Assembly (NCBI GenBank): GCA_964627085.1
Contig: CAZVIP010000003.1
Span: 19,689 to 83,688 of the forward strand
Origin: an uncultured Candidatus Saccharibacteria bacterium
GTDB taxonomy: Bacteria > Patescibacteriota > Minisyncoccia > Phycocordibacterales > CAIZLB01
Direction of reading: 5' to 3'
DNA: 64,000 bases
In this document: piece after piece, positions 953 through 44,072 of the stretch
How positions within the stretch are numbered: the first letter of the stretch is position 1
How the letters are laid out: every line of letters begins with the position of its first letter
The notes under the pieces: generated by a model
The model's database searches: none
Seen by the model: only the letters and a program-made list of their open reading frames with translations
What the model was told of the DNA's origin: nothing
Program-made: the position numbers and the translations under genes

Positions 953-1741
953 ATGAAGCTCATTCAAATTGGAACCCTCCTCGGAGTGCTCCTCTGCAAT
1001 ACCACCACAATCACTGCTGCCGATGACTCAAAAGTCCCGGTAGCTGAAGTCCAACACATCGATTCGGTGTCCACTACCGGCCACTTGTCCTTGTCCAGCA
1101 AATACCTGTCCTTCGGGTCGGGTATCGAGCTGACAGACAAACCCGTCCTGCAAGGTGACATTACCTTGAACTTCAATAAAACCGGTCTCTACGCCCTCGT
1201 CTGGGCATCCACCAGTTTCGATTCCAGTTACAGGAAGAGCAGCTCCGGCAATATCGATTTCGGCAATGAGATCAACTTGGGTGTCGGCTGGTCTGGGCAA
1301 GTGCTCGGACTCGCCACCAATGCAGGTATCACATACTTCGATGAGCCACTGCTTGGCCGAGAGGGTGCGGGAGATATCCTCTATACGCACCTTAAGCTCG
1401 GAAAGGTTCTTGGAGCAGGATACACCCTCTCCGCTTCCTTTGAGAACTACTGGGCATTGCCTGGTAGCTCAGTCGGAGGTGGAAACCTTTACGGTCTTGA
1501 ACTCTCGAACAGCTGGCACCTTGCTAGCAAGCTAACCCTGCTTGCAACCACCGCCCTTGTTTACGATGATGGAGGCTTTGGAGCCGGAAGCGGGCTACTC
1601 ATCCGTGGCGCGACAACCCTGAGCTATCAGCTCACTGATAACCTGTCGATCGACGGTGGCACCAGGTTCTACCTGCCCACCATGTCGGACTATCGCAGCC
1701 CAGACGCAACCTTCTTTATTGGCGCTTCGAAGAAATTCTAG
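953..1741 (+). CDS. Secreted beta-rich protein resembling an outer-membrane beta-barrel
   Basis: It has an N-terminal signal-like segment (MKLIQIGTLLGVLLCNTTTITAAD). Amphipathic alternating strands recur (LYALVWAST, INLGVGWSG, YTLSASFENYWAL, LTLLATTALVY, LSIDGGTRFYLP). The protein ends ...GASKKF with a C-terminal Phe. The segment is GC-rich. Confidence 0.5.
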   Translation: MKLIQIGTLLGVLLCNTTTITAADDSKVPVAEVQHIDSVSTTGHLSLSSKYLSFGSGIELTDKPVLQGDITLNFNKTGLYALVWASTSFDSSYRKSSSGNIDFGNEINLGVGWSGQVLGLATNAGITYFDEPLLGREGAGDILYTHLKLGKVLGAGYTLSASFENYWALPGSSVGGGNLYGLELSNSWHLASKLTLLATTALVYDDGGFGAGSGLLIRGATTLSYQLTDNLSIDGGTRFYLPTMSDYRSPDATFFIGASKKF

Positions 1742-14092: not shown

Positions 14093-14155
14093 ATGCTAGC
14101 ACAAAAAACTAGAGAAATCAAAAACTATACACTTAAAAAATATCCCTATTCCTAG

Positions 14156-14461
14156 CTATTCTTCCTTCTCAACCTCCTCGCCCACCTGACCCTCTACAGT
14201 GGTCAACACTTGGTCCATACTGTGCACATCGCTCCCAAGCCCGCCTACAGCCTTCATAAGAGGTACTGCAAACTGCCCCGCGGCTATGGCATGTCCTTCG
14301 AGAGTGCCATCATTAAGTAATTCATCGAGCCGGGCTTCAAGTGCCGCTGCATCAGCCTCTAGATTGGTCACAGCAGGTGCTTCAACCTGTGTATCAACTT
14401 TCACAGCATCACCCTCTGCTCTTGGCTGACTGATATCTAATTGATTTGGATTTTCACTCAT
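14156..14461 (-). CDS. Small acidic hypothetical protein (101 aa)
   Basis: Ala/Glu/Asp-rich ORF lying between the large coiled-coil gene and the small membrane-protein gene. Confidence 0.4.
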   Translation of the reverse strand: MSENPNQLDISQPRAEGDAVKVDTQVEAPAVTNLEADAAALEARLDELLNDGTLEGHAIAAGQFAVPLMKAVGGLGSDVHSMDQVLTTVEGQVGEEVEKEE

Positions 14462-21993: not shown

Positions 21994-23277
21994 TTAATGT
22001 CTATGTACGTGCATGTGTGAGTGATGGATATGTACATGAGCCGTTTCATCGCCCTCATGGCCCGTTCCTGTATTCGTATGAGCAGGCAACCTACCTCTAA
22101 GCATCCAGATGGAAAGAATCGTAGTAATCGGAACCGTAAGTACAAGCCCGATACTACCTATCAATGTCCTGATTACCTCAGTAGATATATCTTCTCGATT
22201 TATTATAGCCCCAATACTTGAATTACCAGCAGTATAAAAAAGCAATAATAGAGGTAAAGAGGCCCCGACATATGCAAGTGCAAGATTATTCACAAGCGCA
22301 CCTATATGCTCTCTACCAATTCTAATTGATCGTTCAAAAATCTTTCTTATGTGTAGATGCGGAGCAGATCGTAGTAATTCTTCCACGATAATCGCCTGAC
22401 CAATAGCAATATCATAGAGTATACCCAAAAGACCGATCATTATCCCCCCTAGCAGCAATCCCCTCAAATCAATATTTCCACCCATATTAAAATTTAGATA
22501 AACAACCTCCTCAGATGATAGGCCAGTGAGTCGCAAAACATATACAGCATGCAAAGTGAGTAAGCCTGTGCAAACAACAGTTACAATCATCCCAATCACA
22601 GCAGATGATGTTGTGCGATTAAATCCATGTGTCACATATGAACCAAGGATAATAATTATCCCGGAAACAAACACAGAAAGCAGGAGCGGTGACACACCCG
22701 CCACGAGCTGTGGTAAATATAGGTAAAAAATAACAAATATACTTGCAAACAAACTTAGAAGCCCTCTCACACCTTGCATACCACCAAAAAATACCGTGAG
22801 AAAAATAAAAATAACTAAGTAGAAAACCAGCCAATTAAGGCGATAAACCTCTGTTGAGGCATATGTGATTTTCCCATCGTATGTCTTGGTGACTTGAACA
22901 TAAAACACATCACCGCTTTTAGTTTTTAGATGATCATCGAGAATAAGAATATCTTTTTCCTTGTCTGGACCCTCTAATAATCTTGCTTTCACAGTCCTAA
23001 GCACCTGTTTTGTGTCAGTCCCAGGTATTGGCAAAAGGTTTTCTGATTCAATGCTCAATACTTTTGCTTTATATACATACACCTCATCAATTCGCATCGT
23101 TGGCCCTTGAGTGTCTTGGTTGACGGATACCTGACCACCAACACCTGCTTCATTTACTTTTTCTACAGTCTTTTTTTCTCCAGTCAAAGTAAAAAAAACA
23201 TAAAGCACAGCGAATAACGCCACACATACCAGAACCCATTTTTTCCTATTTTTCGAGCCGGTGAACTGAAAACTCAT
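21994..23277 (-). CDS. YibE/F-family membrane protein with His-rich C-terminal tail
   Basis: Polytopic membrane protein. The C-terminus reads HEGDETAHVHIHHSHMHVHRH. Confidence 0.7.
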   Translation of the reverse strand: MSFQFTGSKNRKKWVLVCVALFAVLYVFFTLTGEKKTVEKVNEAGVGGQVSVNQDTQGPTMRIDEVYVYKAKVLSIESENLLPIPGTDTKQVLRTVKARLLEGPDKEKDILILDDHLKTKSGDVFYVQVTKTYDGKITYASTEVYRLNWLVFYLVIFIFLTVFFGGMQGVRGLLSLFASIFVIFYLYLPQLVAGVSPLLLSVFVSGIIIILGSYVTHGFNRTTSSAVIGMIVTVVCTGLLTLHAVYVLRLTGLSSEEVVYLNFNMGGNIDLRGLLLGGIMIGLLGILYDIAIGQAIIVEELLRSAPHLHIRKIFERSIRIGREHIGALVNNLALAYVGASLPLLLLFYTAGNSSIGAIINREDISTEVIRTLIGSIGLVLTVPITTILSIWMLRGRLPAHTNTGTGHEGDETAHVHIHHSHMHVHRH

Positions 23278-23278
23278 A

Positions 23279-23956
23279 TTATTTCTTTATTTTCTTATCA
23301 CCTAATTTCTTTGTCTTCAACAGTTTTTTTGTGTGAGCTGCATTTTTTACGCCAGCAATAATCTTTGTGCTGACTTTATTCTTTGTGCCAGTTTTCTTCA
23401 CCCCAGATTTTGTGAGTGCCGGACCAGTACAACCATTGCATGTACCGAAAAACTCAAGTGAATGACCATCTACAGATCTAAAATTTGGCACATGCGCAAT
23501 CAACTTTTCAATTGCAGATTCAATCTGTGTACTCTCAACATGTTCTGCAAAACCACAATTTTTGCACACCACATGGTGACAGCAGTGGTCATGTTCAACT
23601 GCACCGACTATTTCATAGCGAACAACACCGTCATTGAAATGGACTTCTTTTGCCAAATTAACCTTCACAAACTGGTCGACGATTCGGTAGACCGTTGCTC
23701 TGTCTGGCGATGTTTTGCCAAGTTCTTTAATTATTGATTCAACAGTGATAGGTGTTTCTGTGAGGAAAAGAGTTTCAAGGACACCGATACGACCCTGCGT
23801 ACTCTTAAGGCCTGCCGCTTTGAGAAGAGCTGACAGATCATTTGCTCCGGTGCCATGAGTGACACTATCGACACTCTTGGTTTTTGATTTCGCTGATTTT
23901 GCCGATTTCGTTGATTTTCCAGATCTAGGTGTTGTTTGTGGTGTTTTTTTGGCCAT
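23279..23956 (-). CDS. Fur-family metalloregulator (Zur-like?) with lysine-rich N- and C-terminal extensions
   Basis: The winged-helix region TQGRIGVLETL...ITVESIIKELG...ATVYRIVDQFVKVNL is followed by HDHCCHHVVCKNCG...CNGC. I placed the start at the internal ATG 23956 (MAKKTPQ...). Confidence 0.75.
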   Translation of the reverse strand: MAKKTPQTTPRSGKSTKSAKSAKSKTKSVDSVTHGTGANDLSALLKAAGLKSTQGRIGVLETLFLTETPITVESIIKELGKTSPDRATVYRIVDQFVKVNLAKEVHFNDGVVRYEIVGAVEHDHCCHHVVCKNCGFAEHVESTQIESAIEKLIAHVPNFRSVDGHSLEFFGTCNGCTGPALTKSGVKKTGTKNKVSTKIIAGVKNAAHTKKLLKTKKLGDKKIKK

Positions 23957-24405
23957 GTTTTTGGTAGTAGGATGTTGGTATATTTGGATAATTGATAGAA
24001 AAACAATACCACACTTACTCAATATCTCAAATGCGATTATGTACCAATTGCAAATGCATATCAAATGCGACAGGCTTGCATTAACTAAACCTCTATGCTA
24101 TCCTACCAAATGAAGCAAAGCCTATGCTTCACTGCACAAATCAAACTGACTCAGAGGCAGAGTCAATTCTCGGGTTAGAAAGGCCCAGAAGACATCATGA
24201 ACACCAAGTGGCCCGCATGGGCACTCAAAGGCATCAGCCTCCTCCGCCCCGGTCGGCGCACTGCACTCCAAAAGGGGTGCAATTGCCCAGCCGGGCGCTG
24301 CCGCTGCTAGCGCCTAAGGTTTCTGTGATCGACGCTCCGCTTAACCACAGCTGAGCTAGATCCAGGAATCCTGGCACGACCATGTGTCGTAGCCAAAAAT
24401 ACGCA

Positions 24406-24458
24406 GACCGTTCGCAACAGAACCCTCGTGGTTCAAACGTTGCGGACGGTCTTTTTTT
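24406..24458 (+). terminator. Strong intrinsic terminator at the end of a GC-rich noncoding island
   Basis: 13-bp stem gaccgttcgcaac/gttgcggacggtc followed by TTTTTTT. Confidence 0.65.
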
Positions 24459-24572
24459 AACTTTTCTATATTTTAATTTTACATATTTCATCGAATCCTC
24501 GCGAAATACCTCACGAGATTGAATTTAACAGTAGAATACCAAGCCGACAGCAAAATTTGCTATACTGTATAT

Positions 24573-25052
24573 ATGGAAAAAAGCGAACAACAAATCGTCC
24601 AAGGTGCGCAGAGCTTTCGAGATAAGATCGGGAGCAAGGCATTATATATAGGACTCATTCAAGCTATAGTGGCATTTTTGGGAAGTATGACATTTAGCGA
24701 CATTCTCATGTACAAGCCCTGTACACTTTGCTGGTATCAGAGAATTACCATGTTCCCTCTTGCGATATTACTCATTGTCGGAATTGTACGCAGAGACAAA
24801 GGGGTGCATACATATGTCCTCCCGCTCGCAATCATTGGATGGGTGATTTCTCTTTATCATAATTTACTGTATTACAAAATAATTCCTGACACACTCGCTC
24901 CGTGTTCACTCGGTGTATCATGCACAACAAAATATGTAGAATATTTTGGTTTTGTTACAATTCCTCTTCTTGCATTTGTAGCCTTTTCAGTCATCATTAT
25001 GGCTATGTGCGAGCATATGCGTTTTATCAAAACACAGGCAAATACGCAGTAG
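24573..25052 (+). CDS. Disulfide bond formation protein (DsbB/BdbC family)
   Basis: The KPCTLCWYQR motif typical of BdbC is present in a 4-TM protein, along with a second Cys pair (CSLGVSC). I placed the start at MEKSEQQ (24573). Confidence 0.7.
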   Translation: MEKSEQQIVQGAQSFRDKIGSKALYIGLIQAIVAFLGSMTFSDILMYKPCTLCWYQRITMFPLAILLIVGIVRRDKGVHTYVLPLAIIGWVISLYHNLLYYKIIPDTLAPCSLGVSCTTKYVEYFGFVTIPLLAFVAFSVIIMAMCEHMRFIKTQANTQ

Positions 25053-26621: not shown

Positions 26622-28094
26622 ATGAAAACTGCTACACTGAAAGTAACACACATCGGCCGAATCACCACAGTCTCTCAAGACTTTGCATACGGCTTTATCA
26701 GCATCGCCACGGTCTCCAAGATCGACGATATCCAACACGGTCTTGCGACCACAGTGGATATCTACATCCATCAAAATGATTGCAGCTCACGACCTCTCAG
26801 GGTCGGCATGCTTGTATCATTTGATGTCACACCTGACCTAACACGGGCGGGTGCGTTCCGAGCAATCGGAGCTGTTGAGGAAATCGAGGCAGAACTCCTC
26901 CCTGAAGGCCAACAGCCGATGGAAGGATTCAACGCTCTCGCGCCCTTTGCTGGGACATCCACGCTTGCACAAGCCGATAACGGTGGCTACATCCCGCCAA
27001 CACAAGCACAGGCACCAAAGATGAAGGCTTCCGACCCGGCAACACTCGCATTGGTTAGTGCAAACAACCCGGCGCCTGGCATCCCACGGGACCACACGGT
27101 CCCGGAAAACGTTGACGAGCTTATGGTATTGTTTCTACAAAACCAATACCCCTCGCTAGTTAGTTTCGGTGCGCACTTTGGTCTGGACTCGGATGAAACT
27201 GAGTTCAATGAGCAAGTATCAGCAGCGACAGAAGAACTGAGAGGACTCGGCATGGATACCCAAGTCGGAATCCTCGAGAACGAGGCAGCTCACTTCTTGT
27301 CATTCCGCAAGGCCTTGGTCATTATGAAGCGCGAAAAACTCATCCGGAAAGACGCCATCATCCCGATGGAGTTCTTACCAGACTTCTTCGCAGCAGTTCC
27401 AGTTTGGTTCCATTTCGGAAGTGATGAGGAGCACAGGTTGGCAACTAACGGCGATCAGCGTGGGGCCTTGCTGGTTCCACCAAGAATCAGAGCATTCTGC
27501 AGCATTTTCCCCAACCAAAACTGGGTAGACATGCTATTGATGTTCAATCGCCGTCCAAGAACACACCAGATGTATGCAGGAGATCAAATCCCACTAAGCG
27601 TCCTTCGTCGTGTTCGGGAGATGCTCCCACATTTTGATCACGTGGTCATCATGACCCCTTATCACGATGTGGCAGGAAGGGATTGGCAGAGGCTTAGCAC
27701 CCTCCGTAATCCTGACCCATACATCATTGGAGTCAAGGTAGGGGTTCCATACTTCTTCATTCTCGCCAGGTTCAGCGACAGCGGGACATTCCCTGCTCAT
27801 CACGAACTAATTGCAGACACAATGAAATTCTTGGACAACAACAAGGACAAGTTGAGAGGTTTCAACTCAACACCAGGTCTCGAGTGGCTCGGATACGACC
27901 CTATCAATCCCAGCCGGACAGTAGGGGACATTTCTTCCATGAATGGCATGGGTGTTGGTCGGGCAAACTCCCTCGGTGATCATCTCATCAAAACAGCCGA
28001 AGAAGCTCTCCTTGCTTTCGAGCAAGGAAAACTCTTCGATTGGCTCCGGGGAGCAAAGCTTGAACCAGTGACTGAAACAGCTTCGGCAAAATAA
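26622..28094 (+). CDS. Hypothetical 490-aa protein: cold-shock-domain-like N-terminus fused to a large domain of unknown function
   Basis: The N-terminus (LKVTHIGRITTVSQDFAYGFISI...TVDIYIHQNDC...VGMLVSFDV) follows the CspA pattern (KGxVKWFNxxKGFGFI...VFVHxSAI...VxFxV). The gene is GC-rich, with its own promoter, long leader and terminator. Confidence 0.6.
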   Translation: MKTATLKVTHIGRITTVSQDFAYGFISIATVSKIDDIQHGLATTVDIYIHQNDCSSRPLRVGMLVSFDVTPDLTRAGAFRAIGAVEEIEAELLPEGQQPMEGFNALAPFAGTSTLAQADNGGYIPPTQAQAPKMKASDPATLALVSANNPAPGIPRDHTVPENVDELMVLFLQNQYPSLVSFGAHFGLDSDETEFNEQVSAATEELRGLGMDTQVGILENEAAHFLSFRKALVIMKREKLIRKDAIIPMEFLPDFFAAVPVWFHFGSDEEHRLATNGDQRGALLVPPRIRAFCSIFPNQNWVDMLLMFNRRPRTHQMYAGDQIPLSVLRRVREMLPHFDHVVIMTPYHDVAGRDWQRLSTLRNPDPYIIGVKVGVPYFFILARFSDSGTFPAHHELIADTMKFLDNNKDKLRGFNSTPGLEWLGYDPINPSRTVGDISSMNGMGVGRANSLGDHLIKTAEEALLAFEQGKLFDWLRGAKLEPVTETASAK

Positions 28095-28296: not shown

Positions 28297-30300
28297 TTAA
28301 GGCTCAATCTTATCAGGCTCAAGGACGAGTACGTCTTCGGTTTTTTCTATCTCTTTCATTGTATCTGTCATTGCGCCATCTGTAGTTGCACTATGTTTTG
28401 TATCAGTGTCTTGTGTTGCACCCTCGGATTCAGTGGTGACAACAGTGCTCTTTGCATCGACATTTCCGGTGGAGATATTGGACTCGCTCGTAGCTGTAGT
28501 TGTATCACCAGCAGAATTGGTGACGGCGCGACCAGAAGCATCAGACACAGATGCAGACAAAGACGCAGGCACAGCACCAGCGGTCGCGAATTGTGGACGA
28601 CTGGTTTTGCCAAAGATTGTAGCGAAAGGAATTTTCTTGTGGAGTGTTTCGGAGACTTCTTCGAGCTCTTTGCTGCCCAGCGCCTTGAGTACAAAAATAC
28701 CTACGATAATTCCAATACAACCAGCGACAAAGCCGTGAAGGAAAACACCTCGTAGTGTTGTGAGGTCAAATACTCCGTCAAAAATATTGAGCGCTACATA
28801 TGCGAAAAATCCTCCGATGACACCAGCGCCAAGTGAGCCAATCCATACTCTCCATGTTTCGCGAAGCAGAAGGCCGTGACTGAAATCTTTTTCAAATTTA
28901 ACCCAGAATGCGAGTGTGTTTACAATTGTTCCGAGTGTGTATCCGAGCGGTAGCATCAAAATTTCGATACCTGCAATTCCCTCTACTCTAAATAATCTTG
29001 CAAAAAAGTTTCCAAACTCCGGACTCACACGATAAAGCCAGATAAATGCGAGCGGTGATCCAATTGTGAGCACTGATGAAAGTAAATTGATAACAAGTGG
29101 TTTTCTTGTCTCACCTGCTGCATAGTATGCGCGTATAAATAATAATTCGAGAGACTGTCCAACAAGTGATATGACAAAGAGCGCAAGACATGCTGCGGTC
29201 AATCTCGTATTATCCCAATTGAAGTTTCCAGAACCGAGAACAGTTCGTACAATTTGTGCGCGGAGGACTATGAACAAAGCTGAAATCGGAACGGACCAAA
29301 AGATAACATGTCGCATCGCATTGACGATTTGATTCATGAACTTATCTCGCTCCCCTTTTGCAAAATATGCACTGAGTGTTGGAAATGCCGCGAGCGCATA
29401 ACTAACACCAACAATACCAAGTGGTACTGATTGTATATTAAAAGAAAAACTCAAAATAGAGATTGACCCGATGGTGAGTGTTGATGCGAGTGCTGTTAAA
29501 AATACAAGTTCAAGCATTGATGCTGAAAGCGTCAATGTTCGTGGAACTGAAAGTGCAAATACTTCACGCACGATTTTCCAGTCGATATTGCGTGGGAGGC
29601 GGAGGCGCGGGAGGAGGCGCTCTTTTTTAATAAAAGGAATTTGAATACTGAAATGTAAAATACCTCCGAGCACAACACCCCACACCACACCTGAAATGCC
29701 GAGAAATGGCCGTATAAAGAATATACCGAAGATAATGGCCACATTGTATACAATTGGTGAAATTGCATATAACACAAATCTTTTGCGAAGCTGTGTCAGT
29801 GATCCTAGAATGTTTGAAAGCCCTAAACAGATTGGCTGCAAGAGCAGAATTCGAGACAGAAATACAACTTGATCGATCACATGTTGATTATCAGCAAAAC
29901 CTTTGAAGACATTTTTTGTTAACCATGGCATGAGCATGTAGAAAATCGCAGAGAGCACAATCATCATGATTCCAAATGTATTGAAAATTGAATCAAGGAG
30001 ATTGCGGACTTTTTCATGTCCTTTTTCTGAATCACTCTCACTACTTTCTGCGCGATTAATAAATGGGATAATAACTGAGATTGAAACAAGTGACGCAGCA
30101 GTTGCAAAAATTACATCCGGAATTCGAAAGGCAGCATAATAGATATCAAGTGTTTGACCAGCTCCAAAAAAATGTGCCAAAGCTCTGTCACGCACAAGCC
30201 CCAAGAGTTGGGCGAGTAATGTAAAAAATCCAATCAAAAATGCCGCCTGATGGACGCCAATAATTTCACGGTTAAATAGTTTGAGGATTTTGGATACCAT
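28297..30300 (-). CDS. murJ: Lipid II flippase MurJ (MviN) with Ser/Thr-rich C-terminal extension
   Basis: About 14 TM helices. MviN-like start MVSKILKLFNREIIGVHQAAFLIGFFTLLAQLLGLVRDR...FFGAG. Confidence 0.85.
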   Translation of the reverse strand: MVSKILKLFNREIIGVHQAAFLIGFFTLLAQLLGLVRDRALAHFFGAGQTLDIYYAAFRIPDVIFATAASLVSISVIIPFINRAESSESDSEKGHEKVRNLLDSIFNTFGIMMIVLSAIFYMLMPWLTKNVFKGFADNQHVIDQVVFLSRILLLQPICLGLSNILGSLTQLRKRFVLYAISPIVYNVAIIFGIFFIRPFLGISGVVWGVVLGGILHFSIQIPFIKKERLLPRLRLPRNIDWKIVREVFALSVPRTLTLSASMLELVFLTALASTLTIGSISILSFSFNIQSVPLGIVGVSYALAAFPTLSAYFAKGERDKFMNQIVNAMRHVIFWSVPISALFIVLRAQIVRTVLGSGNFNWDNTRLTAACLALFVISLVGQSLELLFIRAYYAAGETRKPLVINLLSSVLTIGSPLAFIWLYRVSPEFGNFFARLFRVEGIAGIEILMLPLGYTLGTIVNTLAFWVKFEKDFSHGLLLRETWRVWIGSLGAGVIGGFFAYVALNIFDGVFDLTTLRGVFLHGFVAGCIGIIVGIFVLKALGSKELEEVSETLHKKIPFATIFGKTSRPQFATAGAVPASLSASVSDASGRAVTNSAGDTTTATSESNISTGNVDAKSTVVTTESEGATQDTDTKHSATTDGAMTDTMKEIEKTEDVLVLEPDKIEP

Positions 30301-43136: not shown

Positions 43137-44042
43137 CTATTTTACACTTGATCTAAGCATTGCGATCCTCTCCTCTGCCGGTGGATGTGTCATAAAAAGG
43201 GCGTGAATACCTTTACCAGCAAGACCACCAAATGGATTTGAAATATAAAGGTGTGCAGTCGCGTCTCGTGCCGTCTCCATCGGCTCAGCATGTGTTGATA
43301 TTTTCTCAAGTGCCTTTGCGAGCCCTTCTGGATTTCTTGTTAAAAGAGCAGCGCTTGCATCTGCAAGAAACTCACGTTTGCGTGAAATAGCAAGGCGAAT
43401 CAATAAACCCGCAAGCGGCGCAAGTAAGATGAGTATAAAACCTATAATTATAGAGACACCACCCCTATTATCCTGACCATCCCTCGCACCAAAACCACCA
43501 AATAGCGCAGAGCGCAAAAAGATATCAGATGCAATAGAAAGAAACCCTGCAAGGACAACTGCAATTGTTGAGATTAAAATATCCTTATTTCCGATATGAG
43601 ATAGCTCATGTGCAAGTACACCCTCTAATTCTGATCTATCTAATATTCGAAGGAGTCCTGTAGTCACCGCAATTGCACTATGATTTTTATTTCTACCAGT
43701 TGCGAAAGCATTCGGCACCTGATCTTGGACCAGATACAAACGTGGCACAGGAAGGCCTGCGGTAATACACAAGTTCTCAACCATTCTACGGAGCTCAATA
43801 TATTCAGGGTCTTGTGGACCAATTTCCACTGCCTTTGCCATTTTGAGAGCAACAGTATCAGAATACCAATAGCTAAAAAAGTTCAATACCACACTAAAGA
43901 CTACCGCCCCATATAATATCGATCGGCTATTGAAATAAAAACTCAAAAACCAACCAACAGCAATAATAAGCGAAAACAGGAAGACCATGAGAAACAGTGT
44001 CTTTGTATTATTAGATTCCTGGTGTGTGTATAGTGTTGCCAT
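43137..44042 (-). CDS. htpX: Protease HtpX (M48 zinc metalloprotease)
   Basis: HELSHI zinc motif, TM helices and an HtpX-like N-terminus are present. Confidence 0.85.
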   Translation of the reverse strand: MATLYTHQESNNTKTLFLMVFLFSLIIAVGWFLSFYFNSRSILYGAVVFSVVLNFFSYWYSDTVALKMAKAVEIGPQDPEYIELRRMVENLCITAGLPVPRLYLVQDQVPNAFATGRNKNHSAIAVTTGLLRILDRSELEGVLAHELSHIGNKDILISTIAVVLAGFLSIASDIFLRSALFGGFGARDGQDNRGGVSIIIGFILILLAPLAGLLIRLAISRKREFLADASAALLTRNPEGLAKALEKISTHAEPMETARDATAHLYISNPFGGLAGKGIHALFMTHPPAEERIAMLRSSVK

Positions 44043-44072
44043 AAATACGCAATTATTAACTCTGGTTACTTG

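Follow-up and report, generated by a model that had tools for sequence, protein, structure and literature searches.

In the 64-kb stretch of contig CAZVIP010000003.1 analysed here (the window), which comes from an uncultured Candidatus Saccharibacteria bacterium, a gene for a Fur-family metalloregulator (fur) and the gene dsbB are separated by a short G+C-rich island. A preliminary description of this DNA, made from the sequence alone, took the island for a noncoding structured RNA with a promoter and a terminator of its own. In this paper we describe a conserved 37-codon open reading frame (ORF) at the core of the island, and argue that the island is probably an overlooked gene for a small protein with four cysteines.

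G+C content, scanned in 120-nt windows, averages 0.41 over the 64 kb and climbs to 0.67 between 24129 and 24433, the top value of the window; the island is thus G+C-rich, as the preliminary description had it. The promoter it reported, TTGCAT-17-TATCCT, is present, displaced by one base, and the strong terminator is likewise real, with a stem of 14 bp rather than 13. Having both of these signals and genuine RNA hairpins, the island reads as an independent transcription unit (Table 1). Fold strength was expressed as z relative to shuffled sequences, and by this measure the plus strand of the whole region folds at z = -6.9 and the minus strand at z = -4.2. The internal helices noticed earlier are real hairpins, but only those in the 3' untranslated region (3'UTR) and the terminator stand clear of the shuffled sequences; the 5'UTR and the ORF are marginal (z about -2; the ORF segment alone, z = -2.1). 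The claim that the island contains no credible ORF, and with it the view that the island is purely noncoding, did not hold, and the conserved ORF lies at its G+C peak.

The names attached to DsbB matches assign the organism to Patescibacteria/Parcubacteria (Paceibacteria). Seven public contigs are 100% identical to the window across the region. Two short contigs, L010 and L011, have 89% and 83% nucleotide identity to the window over the same region, and evidence from aligned ORFs is drawn from these three G+C-rich sequences, that is, the window, L010 and L011 (83-89% nucleotide identity). Three loci, L012, L013 and L038, belong to more distant Paceibacteria lineages, in which the DNA of the small ORF is AT-rich and cannot be aligned with the window; L038 was taken from a 580-kb contig, and L012 overlaps L102, from the same sample, the two together giving the order fur / small ORF / dsbB. 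The Fur proteins of L012 and L013 are 64% and 46% identical to that of the window and the gene order is kept in both, with nucleotide similarity limited to a AAATGCGA...TTGCA block adjoining fur.

Searches at the nucleotide level recovered few relatives. With the three-sequence alignment as query, nhmmer found the near clade only among all 102 loci and had no match in the 90 other Paceibacteria loci. Exact-pattern scans of JGI metagenomes and IMG/VR for conserved RNA blocks gave zero matches, a scan of GTDB genomes with the Fur protein returned only distant Fur genes of unrelated phyla, and the window holds no second copy of the region.

Table 1. Features of the fur-dsbB region (window positions)
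Feature	Position	Strand	Remarks
Fur-family metalloregulator gene	23279-23956	-	Pfam PF01475, E=1e-15; 225 amino acids; divergent from the small gene
Predicted operator	24064-24082		imperfect palindrome AATGCGAC-AGG-CTTGCATT; right half holds the -35 of the small gene
Small-gene promoter	24076-24104	+	-35 TTGCAT (24076-24081); 17-nt spacer including TG; -10 TATCCT (24099-24104)
5'UTR	24111-24196	+	about 86 nt; hairpins 24111-24131, 24147-24165 and 24167-24190; z = -2.2
Small ORF	24197-24310	+	37 codons plus TAG; MNTKWPAWALKGISLLRPGRRTALQKGCNCPAGRCRC; conserved in L010 and L011
Structured 3'UTR	24311-24405	+	long hairpin 24318-24370; hairpin 24372-24395; unpaired A-rich CCAAAAAUACGCAG at 24392-24405; z = -4.3
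Intrinsic terminator	24405-24458	+	14-bp stem (24405-24452) with inner 5-bp hairpin, then T7; z = -5.4
dsbB	24573-25052	+	Pfam DsbB; followed by a DsbA-like thioredoxin gene and mscL

Conservation of the small open reading frame and its linkage to fur

Among the small ORFs of the three aligned sequences, exactly one is kept in all of them. Its counterparts in L010 (MNTKWPAWALKGASLLLPRRAGTALRKGCNCPAGRCSC) and L011 (MNVQSWPAWALKGISLLSRRSGTALRKGCNCPAGRCSC) are each 38 amino acids long; the start codons align, and so do the stops, which are TAG in the window and in L010 and TAA in L011. Indels within the ORF are of 3 nt only, and indels of 1, 2, 3 and 6 nt all fall in the 5'UTR. Between the window and L010 there are 4, 3 and 8 substitutions at codon positions 1, 2 and 3, and between the window and L011 there are 6, 2 and 10. 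Synonymous codon changes number 6-7 in the frame of the ORF as against 1-3 in the shifted frames, and the last 14 codons have 4 synonymous and 2 non-synonymous changes. Frame, start and stop are preserved, length changes come in threes, and substitutions accumulate at third positions and synonymous sites, which is the pattern looked for in a small coding ORF.

The peptide of the window is strongly basic (isoelectric point 10.9), has no acidic residues, and carries its four cysteines as two C-terminal CxC pairs that do not vary across four lineages. Metallothioneins typically contain CxC motifs. Gene callers have overlooked the ORF, leaving the region empty or, in one contig, filling it with a spurious antisense ORF of 85 amino acids that is not conserved. 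Two further frames on the plus strand were rejected: an ORF of 76 amino acids (24124-24354) loses its frame in L010 through a 2-nt deletion, and one of 46 amino acids running through the terminator meets a stop codon in L010.

The peptide is still recognisable where the DNA is no longer alignable. At the same site L012 (MKTKLFNGINILLHSLKVNKNAACTCRGRCTCK), L013 (MKTLSF...VQLRARRCKC, with a GTG start) and L038 (MKTIALGARSAKKRPRACTCGRFGHHCTCG, a 30-mer) each have a plus-strand ORF that points away from fur and lies upstream of dsbB, and all three peptides begin with MxT and end in CxC...(R)CxC, as that of the window does. The same-site peptides are all basic, with isoelectric points of 10-11, and almost without acidic residues. 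In L038 a canonical Shine-Dalgarno sequence, AAGGAGGTGA, lies 7 nt upstream of the ATG and a terminator follows soon after the stop. The background for the C-terminal motif was a set of 3,392 ORFs of 25-60 amino acids taken mechanically from all six frames of 413 kb of non-redundant loci. An RCxC(x)* ending is found in five of these, all at this site, and in none of the other 3,387.

A looser pattern, requiring only a CxC...CxC end, has a sole background match, an antisense ORF in murJ (window 28541-28765, minus strand, ending in ...CCACVFVCICV) that we judged spurious.

Because L038 has both fur and the small ORF and L100 has neither, the ORF travels with the regulator and not with dsbB. L100 has a 76% identical DsbB and the same ZIP, glutaredoxin and FKBP neighbours, with a gap of 68 nt where the small gene would be. 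Among 80 metagenome loci anchored on DsbB, a divergent fur adjoins dsbB only in L038, and the small ORF is likewise found only in L038; about 40 DsbB loci with enough upstream sequence have no small ORF.

Regulator, promoter and transcript

The Fur-family gene heads a string of genes in the order fur / YibE-F / ZIP (ZupT-like) / glutaredoxin / FKBP. Half-sites AAATGCGA / TTGCAAATGCA lie at 24029-24060, over the predicted fur promoter on the other strand, and the palindrome listed in Table 1 as a predicted operator lies beside them, over the promoter of the small gene. In L038 the corresponding palindrome, ACTAATGCAAC-ATA-GTTGCATTAGT, is perfect, and its right half is the -35 TTGCAT. A pattern derived from L038 matches the palindrome of the window with 1 mismatch, every other site in the 64 kb having 3 or more; a search of the window for further operator sites gave none better than chance. 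A palindrome that contains the -35 is thus conserved across lineages at the sequence level, and the Fur-family protein is predicted to bind it. Zn, Fe, Mn and peroxide are all candidate signals; the neighbouring genes for ZIP and the His-rich YibE/F speak for zinc or a different divalent metal.

The YibE/F protein (21994-23277, minus strand) has the His-rich tail HEGDETAHVHIHHSHMHVHRH. At 225 amino acids, the Fur protein of the window has Lys-rich low-complexity extensions at both ends, and its relatives are about 135-155 amino acids long.

The small-gene promoter is retained in both L010 and L011. Its -10 is preceded by TG, giving the extended -10 TGcTATCCT, and the transcription start would lie at about 24111. 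The layout TTGCAT-16/17-TAnnAT recurs in L038, as TTGCAT-16-TATTAT, and in a further fur locus, L094. A generic promoter scan did not list this promoter because TATCCT is a weak hexamer.

In the terminator, L010 has two compensatory double substitutions (GCAAC/GTTGC to GCAAT/ATTGC and GAACC/GGTTC to GAGCC/GGCTC), and one G-U pair is changed to A-U. The 5'UTR is less uniform: its first hairpin is invariant, the second keeps its pairing through G-U changes, and the third is deleted in L011. Downstream, dsbB has an extended -10 of its own, TGcTATACT at 24558-24566, 6 nt upstream of the ATG. A TGnTATAAT-like element stands 6-8 nt before the dsbB ATG in three lineages (window 24558-24575, L038 2953-2970, L100 2986-3003), which implies that the dsbB mRNA would be leaderless or nearly so. 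Because dsbB has its own promoter, it lies outside the transcript of the small gene.

Known structured RNAs were considered for the transcript. Like 6S RNA, transfer-messenger RNA (tmRNA), a tRNA relic, signal recognition particle (SRP) RNA or RNase P RNA, the region is G+C-rich and folds well, spans about 350 nt, has a promoter and a terminator of its own, and stands in an AT-rich genome. The preliminary description had offered a 6S-like RNA, a tmRNA-like RNA or a tRNA relic as candidates and proposed a comparison with Rfam. At the gathering score over the whole window Rfam has nothing at this site, and at E<=10 over 23900-24600 it gives only chance matches to microRNAs, small nucleolar RNAs and long noncoding RNAs, so that no known RNA family was found at the locus. 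ARAGORN makes no call at the site and finds three ordinary tRNAs elsewhere in the window. In the light of these searches the three candidates were given up, permuted forms of tRNA and tmRNA included, and the earlier statement that the island matches neither SRP RNA nor tmRNA termini agrees with the lack of an Rfam match to either RNA. A tmRNA-like tag, AQPGAAAASA*, is in a frame that is not kept in L010. The minus-strand block once likened to a tRNA D-arm exists as a string, TAGCTCAGCTGTGGTTAAGCGGAGCG at 24333-24358, but not as a tRNA feature, since ARAGORN and Rfam are blank there and it is not kept in L011.

6S RNA consists of one long helix, about 180 nt in all, that is interrupted and opens into a large central bubble. 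Here the minimum-free-energy and consensus folds break up into at least six distinct hairpins along about 348 nt, with no 6S rod, and Rfam has no 6S match. RNase P RNA and SRP RNA carry universal conserved sequence blocks that are present across related genomes; for neither is there an Rfam match, and the sequence of the island is confined to near relatives. A reading of the RNase P regions CR-I and CR-V by eye was dropped for lack of the P4-type pairing, and that of a tmRNA tag and T-arm because the tag frame is not kept in L010. The absence of the sequence from relatives whose Fur is 46-64% identical is incompatible with a housekeeping RNA.

Function of the small gene and competing explanations

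We consider it probable that the island is an unannotated gene for a small four-cysteine protein, with structured UTRs, controlled by the adjacent Fur-family regulator. The transcript signals, the conservation of the ORF, the recurrence of the peptide family, its linkage to fur and the covariation in the terminator are shown by the sequences themselves, and we infer regulator binding, translation, metal binding and any role at the RNA level. The gene would be monocistronic and about 348 nt long (about 24111-24458, plus strand), with the 37-codon ORF as its core, and would be transcribed from the extended -10 promoter, whose -35 lies within an operator held in common with the divergent Fur-family gene. 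When metallated (or reduced), the bound regulator would repress both its own operon and the small gene; when the signal falls, the small gene would be co-induced with the fur / YibE-F / ZIP / glutaredoxin / FKBP string. Most likely, the four C-terminal thiolates of the peptide would bind a metal ion, making it a mini-metallothionein or a metallochaperone. Alternatively, like MntS, the small peptide may modulate the metal transporters encoded nearby. The message would be stabilised by its terminator and by the G+C-rich hairpins in both UTRs, the 3' one being 148 nt long and clade-specific; these elements could add a regulatory-RNA function.

Several points weigh against this explanation. G+C content at third codon positions (GC3) is 0.76 in the ORF and 0.33-0.39 in the neighbouring genes, which is odd for a native translated gene and suggests selection at the RNA level or recent transfer. 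The ORF of the window has no Shine-Dalgarno sequence, as is true of its neighbours fur, dsbB and dsbA. Because the G+C-rich version is represented by three sequences only, few substitutions underlie the evidence of the dN/dS type. Searches of Pfam and NCBIfam (E<=10) and of PDB sequences found no homologue of the peptide, and phmmer against 1.84 billion protein representatives, together with a word-index search with the peptide alignment, gave nothing real; an AlphaFold model from the single sequence is uninformative (confidence score, pLDDT, of 58). The NCBIfam models for Fur and PerR score alike, both below their cut-offs, so that the regulator may be of the Fur, Zur or PerR subtype. Four cysteines would be few for a metallothionein, and a repressor of the Fur/Zur type induces its targets at low metal, which would suit a chaperone or scavenger better than a detoxifying metallothionein.

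An extension of this explanation, rather than a competitor to it, is that the transcript has a dual function: besides encoding the peptide, it would act in trans as a base-pairing small RNA (sRNA) of the metal-sparing type through its clade-specific structured 3'UTR, in which CCAAAAAUACGCAG is unpaired. We regard this as tentative. The 3'UTR, 148 nt including the terminator, is found at this length in the window clade only and much exceeds that of L012, L038 and L094, whose terminators lie within tens of bases of the stop. It folds strongly, and its identity to L010 (0.94) and L011 (0.81) is similar to that of flanking coding DNA, and the 5'UTR is conserved to about the same degree, while the AT-rich spacer past the terminator cannot be aligned in L011. 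In the long hairpin the outer stem survives three one-sided changes in L011; the apex, however, is variable, and only three homologues are at hand. The peptide family is wider than the 3'UTR, as has been reported for zinP and the regulatory 3' part of ZinS (PMC13586535). The main reason for keeping an RNA function in play is the high GC3 of the ORF, which hints at constraint on the RNA. As for a target, CCAAAAAUACGCAG is complementary at 13 of 14 positions to the start-codon region (44039-44052, minus strand) of a gene for an M48 (HtpX-like) zinc metalloprotease (43137-44042). This is the best match among 57 initiation regions (-20.3 kcal/mol, the next being -15.2), but it is not significant, with about 0.6 such matches expected by chance among the 57 genes. 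Long structured 3'UTRs may, moreover, merely shield an mRNA from exonucleases.

The widest generalisation that might be drawn, and one that we hold to be speculative, combines two elements: a family of basic peptides of about 30-50 residues, unannotated until now, whose C-terminal CxC...(R)CxC would form a metal-binding knuckle and whose genes would be hard-wired to those of Fur-family regulators throughout Paceibacteria, and, in this clade, the gain of a structured 3'UTR that acts as a metal-responsive sRNA in trans.

It is improbable that the island is a purely noncoding structured RNA whose ORF is a by-product of stop-poor, G+C-rich sequence. The strong fold of the whole region would suit such an RNA, as would the overlapping ORFs that its G+C content creates in other frames, and the atypical GC3, the missing Shine-Dalgarno sequence and the silence of the gene callers could be read in the same way. 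Yet only this one ORF is kept in all three homologues, and its synonymous changes break predicted helices: a change of GGG to GGA, for example, destroys a predicted C-G pair (alignment columns 168/179). Homologous peptides are, furthermore, encoded at the same site by AT-rich, unalignable DNA, in one case behind a strong Shine-Dalgarno sequence, and the ORF segment itself folds only marginally and has no Rfam match.

That the ORF is a Cys-rich leader peptide of dsbB-dsbA-mscL, in which ribosome behaviour at Cys codons or an arrest peptide sets read-through of the terminator, is hardly credible: a small ORF whose extreme C-terminus is conserved does stand upstream of disulfide-bond genes in every lineage, with hairpins and a strong terminator behind it, and arrest peptides that precede protein-localisation genes and have conserved C-termini are known (PMC12992588), but dsbB has its own extended -10 a few bases before the ATG in the window, L038 and L100, the ORF tracks fur and is missing from dsbB loci without it, and no antiterminator pairing that would compete with the terminator stem was seen.

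Related systems and neighbouring features

Of the systems described, ZinS/ZinP of Staphylococcus aureus is the closest to the small gene, a comparison made on the published description. ZinS is a Zur-repressed RNA of 274 nt that encodes ZinP, a basic peptide of 34 amino acids; ZinP is widespread, and the regulatory 3'UTR of ZinS is confined to close relatives (PMC13586535). Both transcripts are about 300 nt long and were first flagged as structured intergenic RNAs, and both have a Fur-family (Zur) box at the promoter, predicted in our case, a very basic peptide of about 35 residues, a strong intrinsic terminator, and a peptide conserved more widely than the 3'UTR. In ZinS the 3'UTR carries RNA function. 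The account of ZinP, however, names no cysteines, while the peptide of the window is defined by its CxC...RCxC end, and ZinS has a strong Shine-Dalgarno sequence and a short 5'UTR where the window gene has no Shine-Dalgarno sequence and a 5'UTR of 86 nt. The phylum, Patescibacteria, is also different.

A second parallel is RybA of E. coli, which was predicted computationally as an sRNA with complex structure and encodes the 42-amino-acid MntS under control of MntR (PMC4361602). As in the window, an sRNA-like prediction hid a short conserved ORF, with repression by a metalloregulator, putative in our case. MntS is repressed when metal is plentiful, and its action in metal homeostasis was demonstrated by experiment, whereas the role of our peptide is predicted. 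The regulator of MntS is of the MntR/DtxR and not the Fur family, and MntS has neither CxC motifs nor sequence similarity to the window peptide.

In gene arrangement the locus recalls smtA-smtB of cyanobacteria, a divergent pair around an intergenic operator (PMC7387436), and Zur control of the metallothionein gene bmtA provides a precedent for a sensor of the Fur family (PMC9337993). The likeness lies in a gene for a small Cys-rich protein that diverges from that of a metal-dependent repressor, with the operator-promoter between them. SmtA, however, has 56 amino acids with 9 Cys and 3 His and belongs to the Pfam family Metallothio_Pro, while the peptide of the window has 4 Cys and no Pfam family; SmtB, an ArsR-family protein, relieves its repression at high zinc, while the regulator here is of the Fur family. 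In Synechococcus, Zur activates bmtA, while the predicted operator in the window overlaps the -35, suggesting repression. The SmtA/BmtA metallothionein family (Pfam PF02069) is marked by about 9 Cys plus His that form a Zn4 cluster. Membership was rejected for the peptide of the window: of its 37 residues only 4 are Cys, it matches neither Pfam nor NCBIfam models at E<=10, and PDB sequences include no relative.

Patescibacteria have tiny genomes and hardly any characterised regulation. A conserved module of regulator, operator and small protein would provide one specific element of their metal or redox homeostasis that can be put to the test. It also corrects a gap in annotation, the peptide being absent from a library that represents about 15 billion predicted proteins, and provides a further case in which a candidate sRNA is really, or is also, the mRNA of a small protein. 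The clade-specific conserved 3'UTR may be a snapshot of a regulatory RNA arising from the 3' end of a small gene. Were the transcript to prove dual in function, the candidate phyla radiation would have its first example of a ZinS/ZinP-like RNA.

Small proteins of metal-binding appearance recur as partners of Fur-family genes in these bacteria. L094, a fifth lineage whose Fur is 48% identical, has at the fur-dsbB site a different, Cys-rich peptide of 49 amino acids, MKKLILGVIAAAASSLGICPRCNKPANRSIGARTTANCSGGCCDGSCAM (1119-1268, minus strand). Its ORF is G+C-rich and has a Shine-Dalgarno sequence, a signal-like N-terminus and a terminator of its own; the gene caller annotated a spurious ORF of 104 amino acids on the opposite strand. 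In L095 a His/Cys-rich protein of 95 amino acids (HNHAHN..., CGECG...CRECG; 987-1274, plus strand) precedes a Fur homologue on the same strand and overlaps its start.

Two other G+C-rich features of the window were recorded. Between mscL and murJ, at 26622-28094 (plus strand), lies an ORF of 490 amino acids with 50-60% G+C and no Pfam or NCBIfam match; it is not present at the syntenic site of L013 and appears to be an insertion of this clade. Another stretch of raised G+C (up to 0.58), at 14143-14460 on the minus strand between tRNA-Phe and an ORF of 642 amino acids, has no Rfam match and reads not as an RNA gene but as a minus-strand ORF of about 100 codons that starts near 14461.

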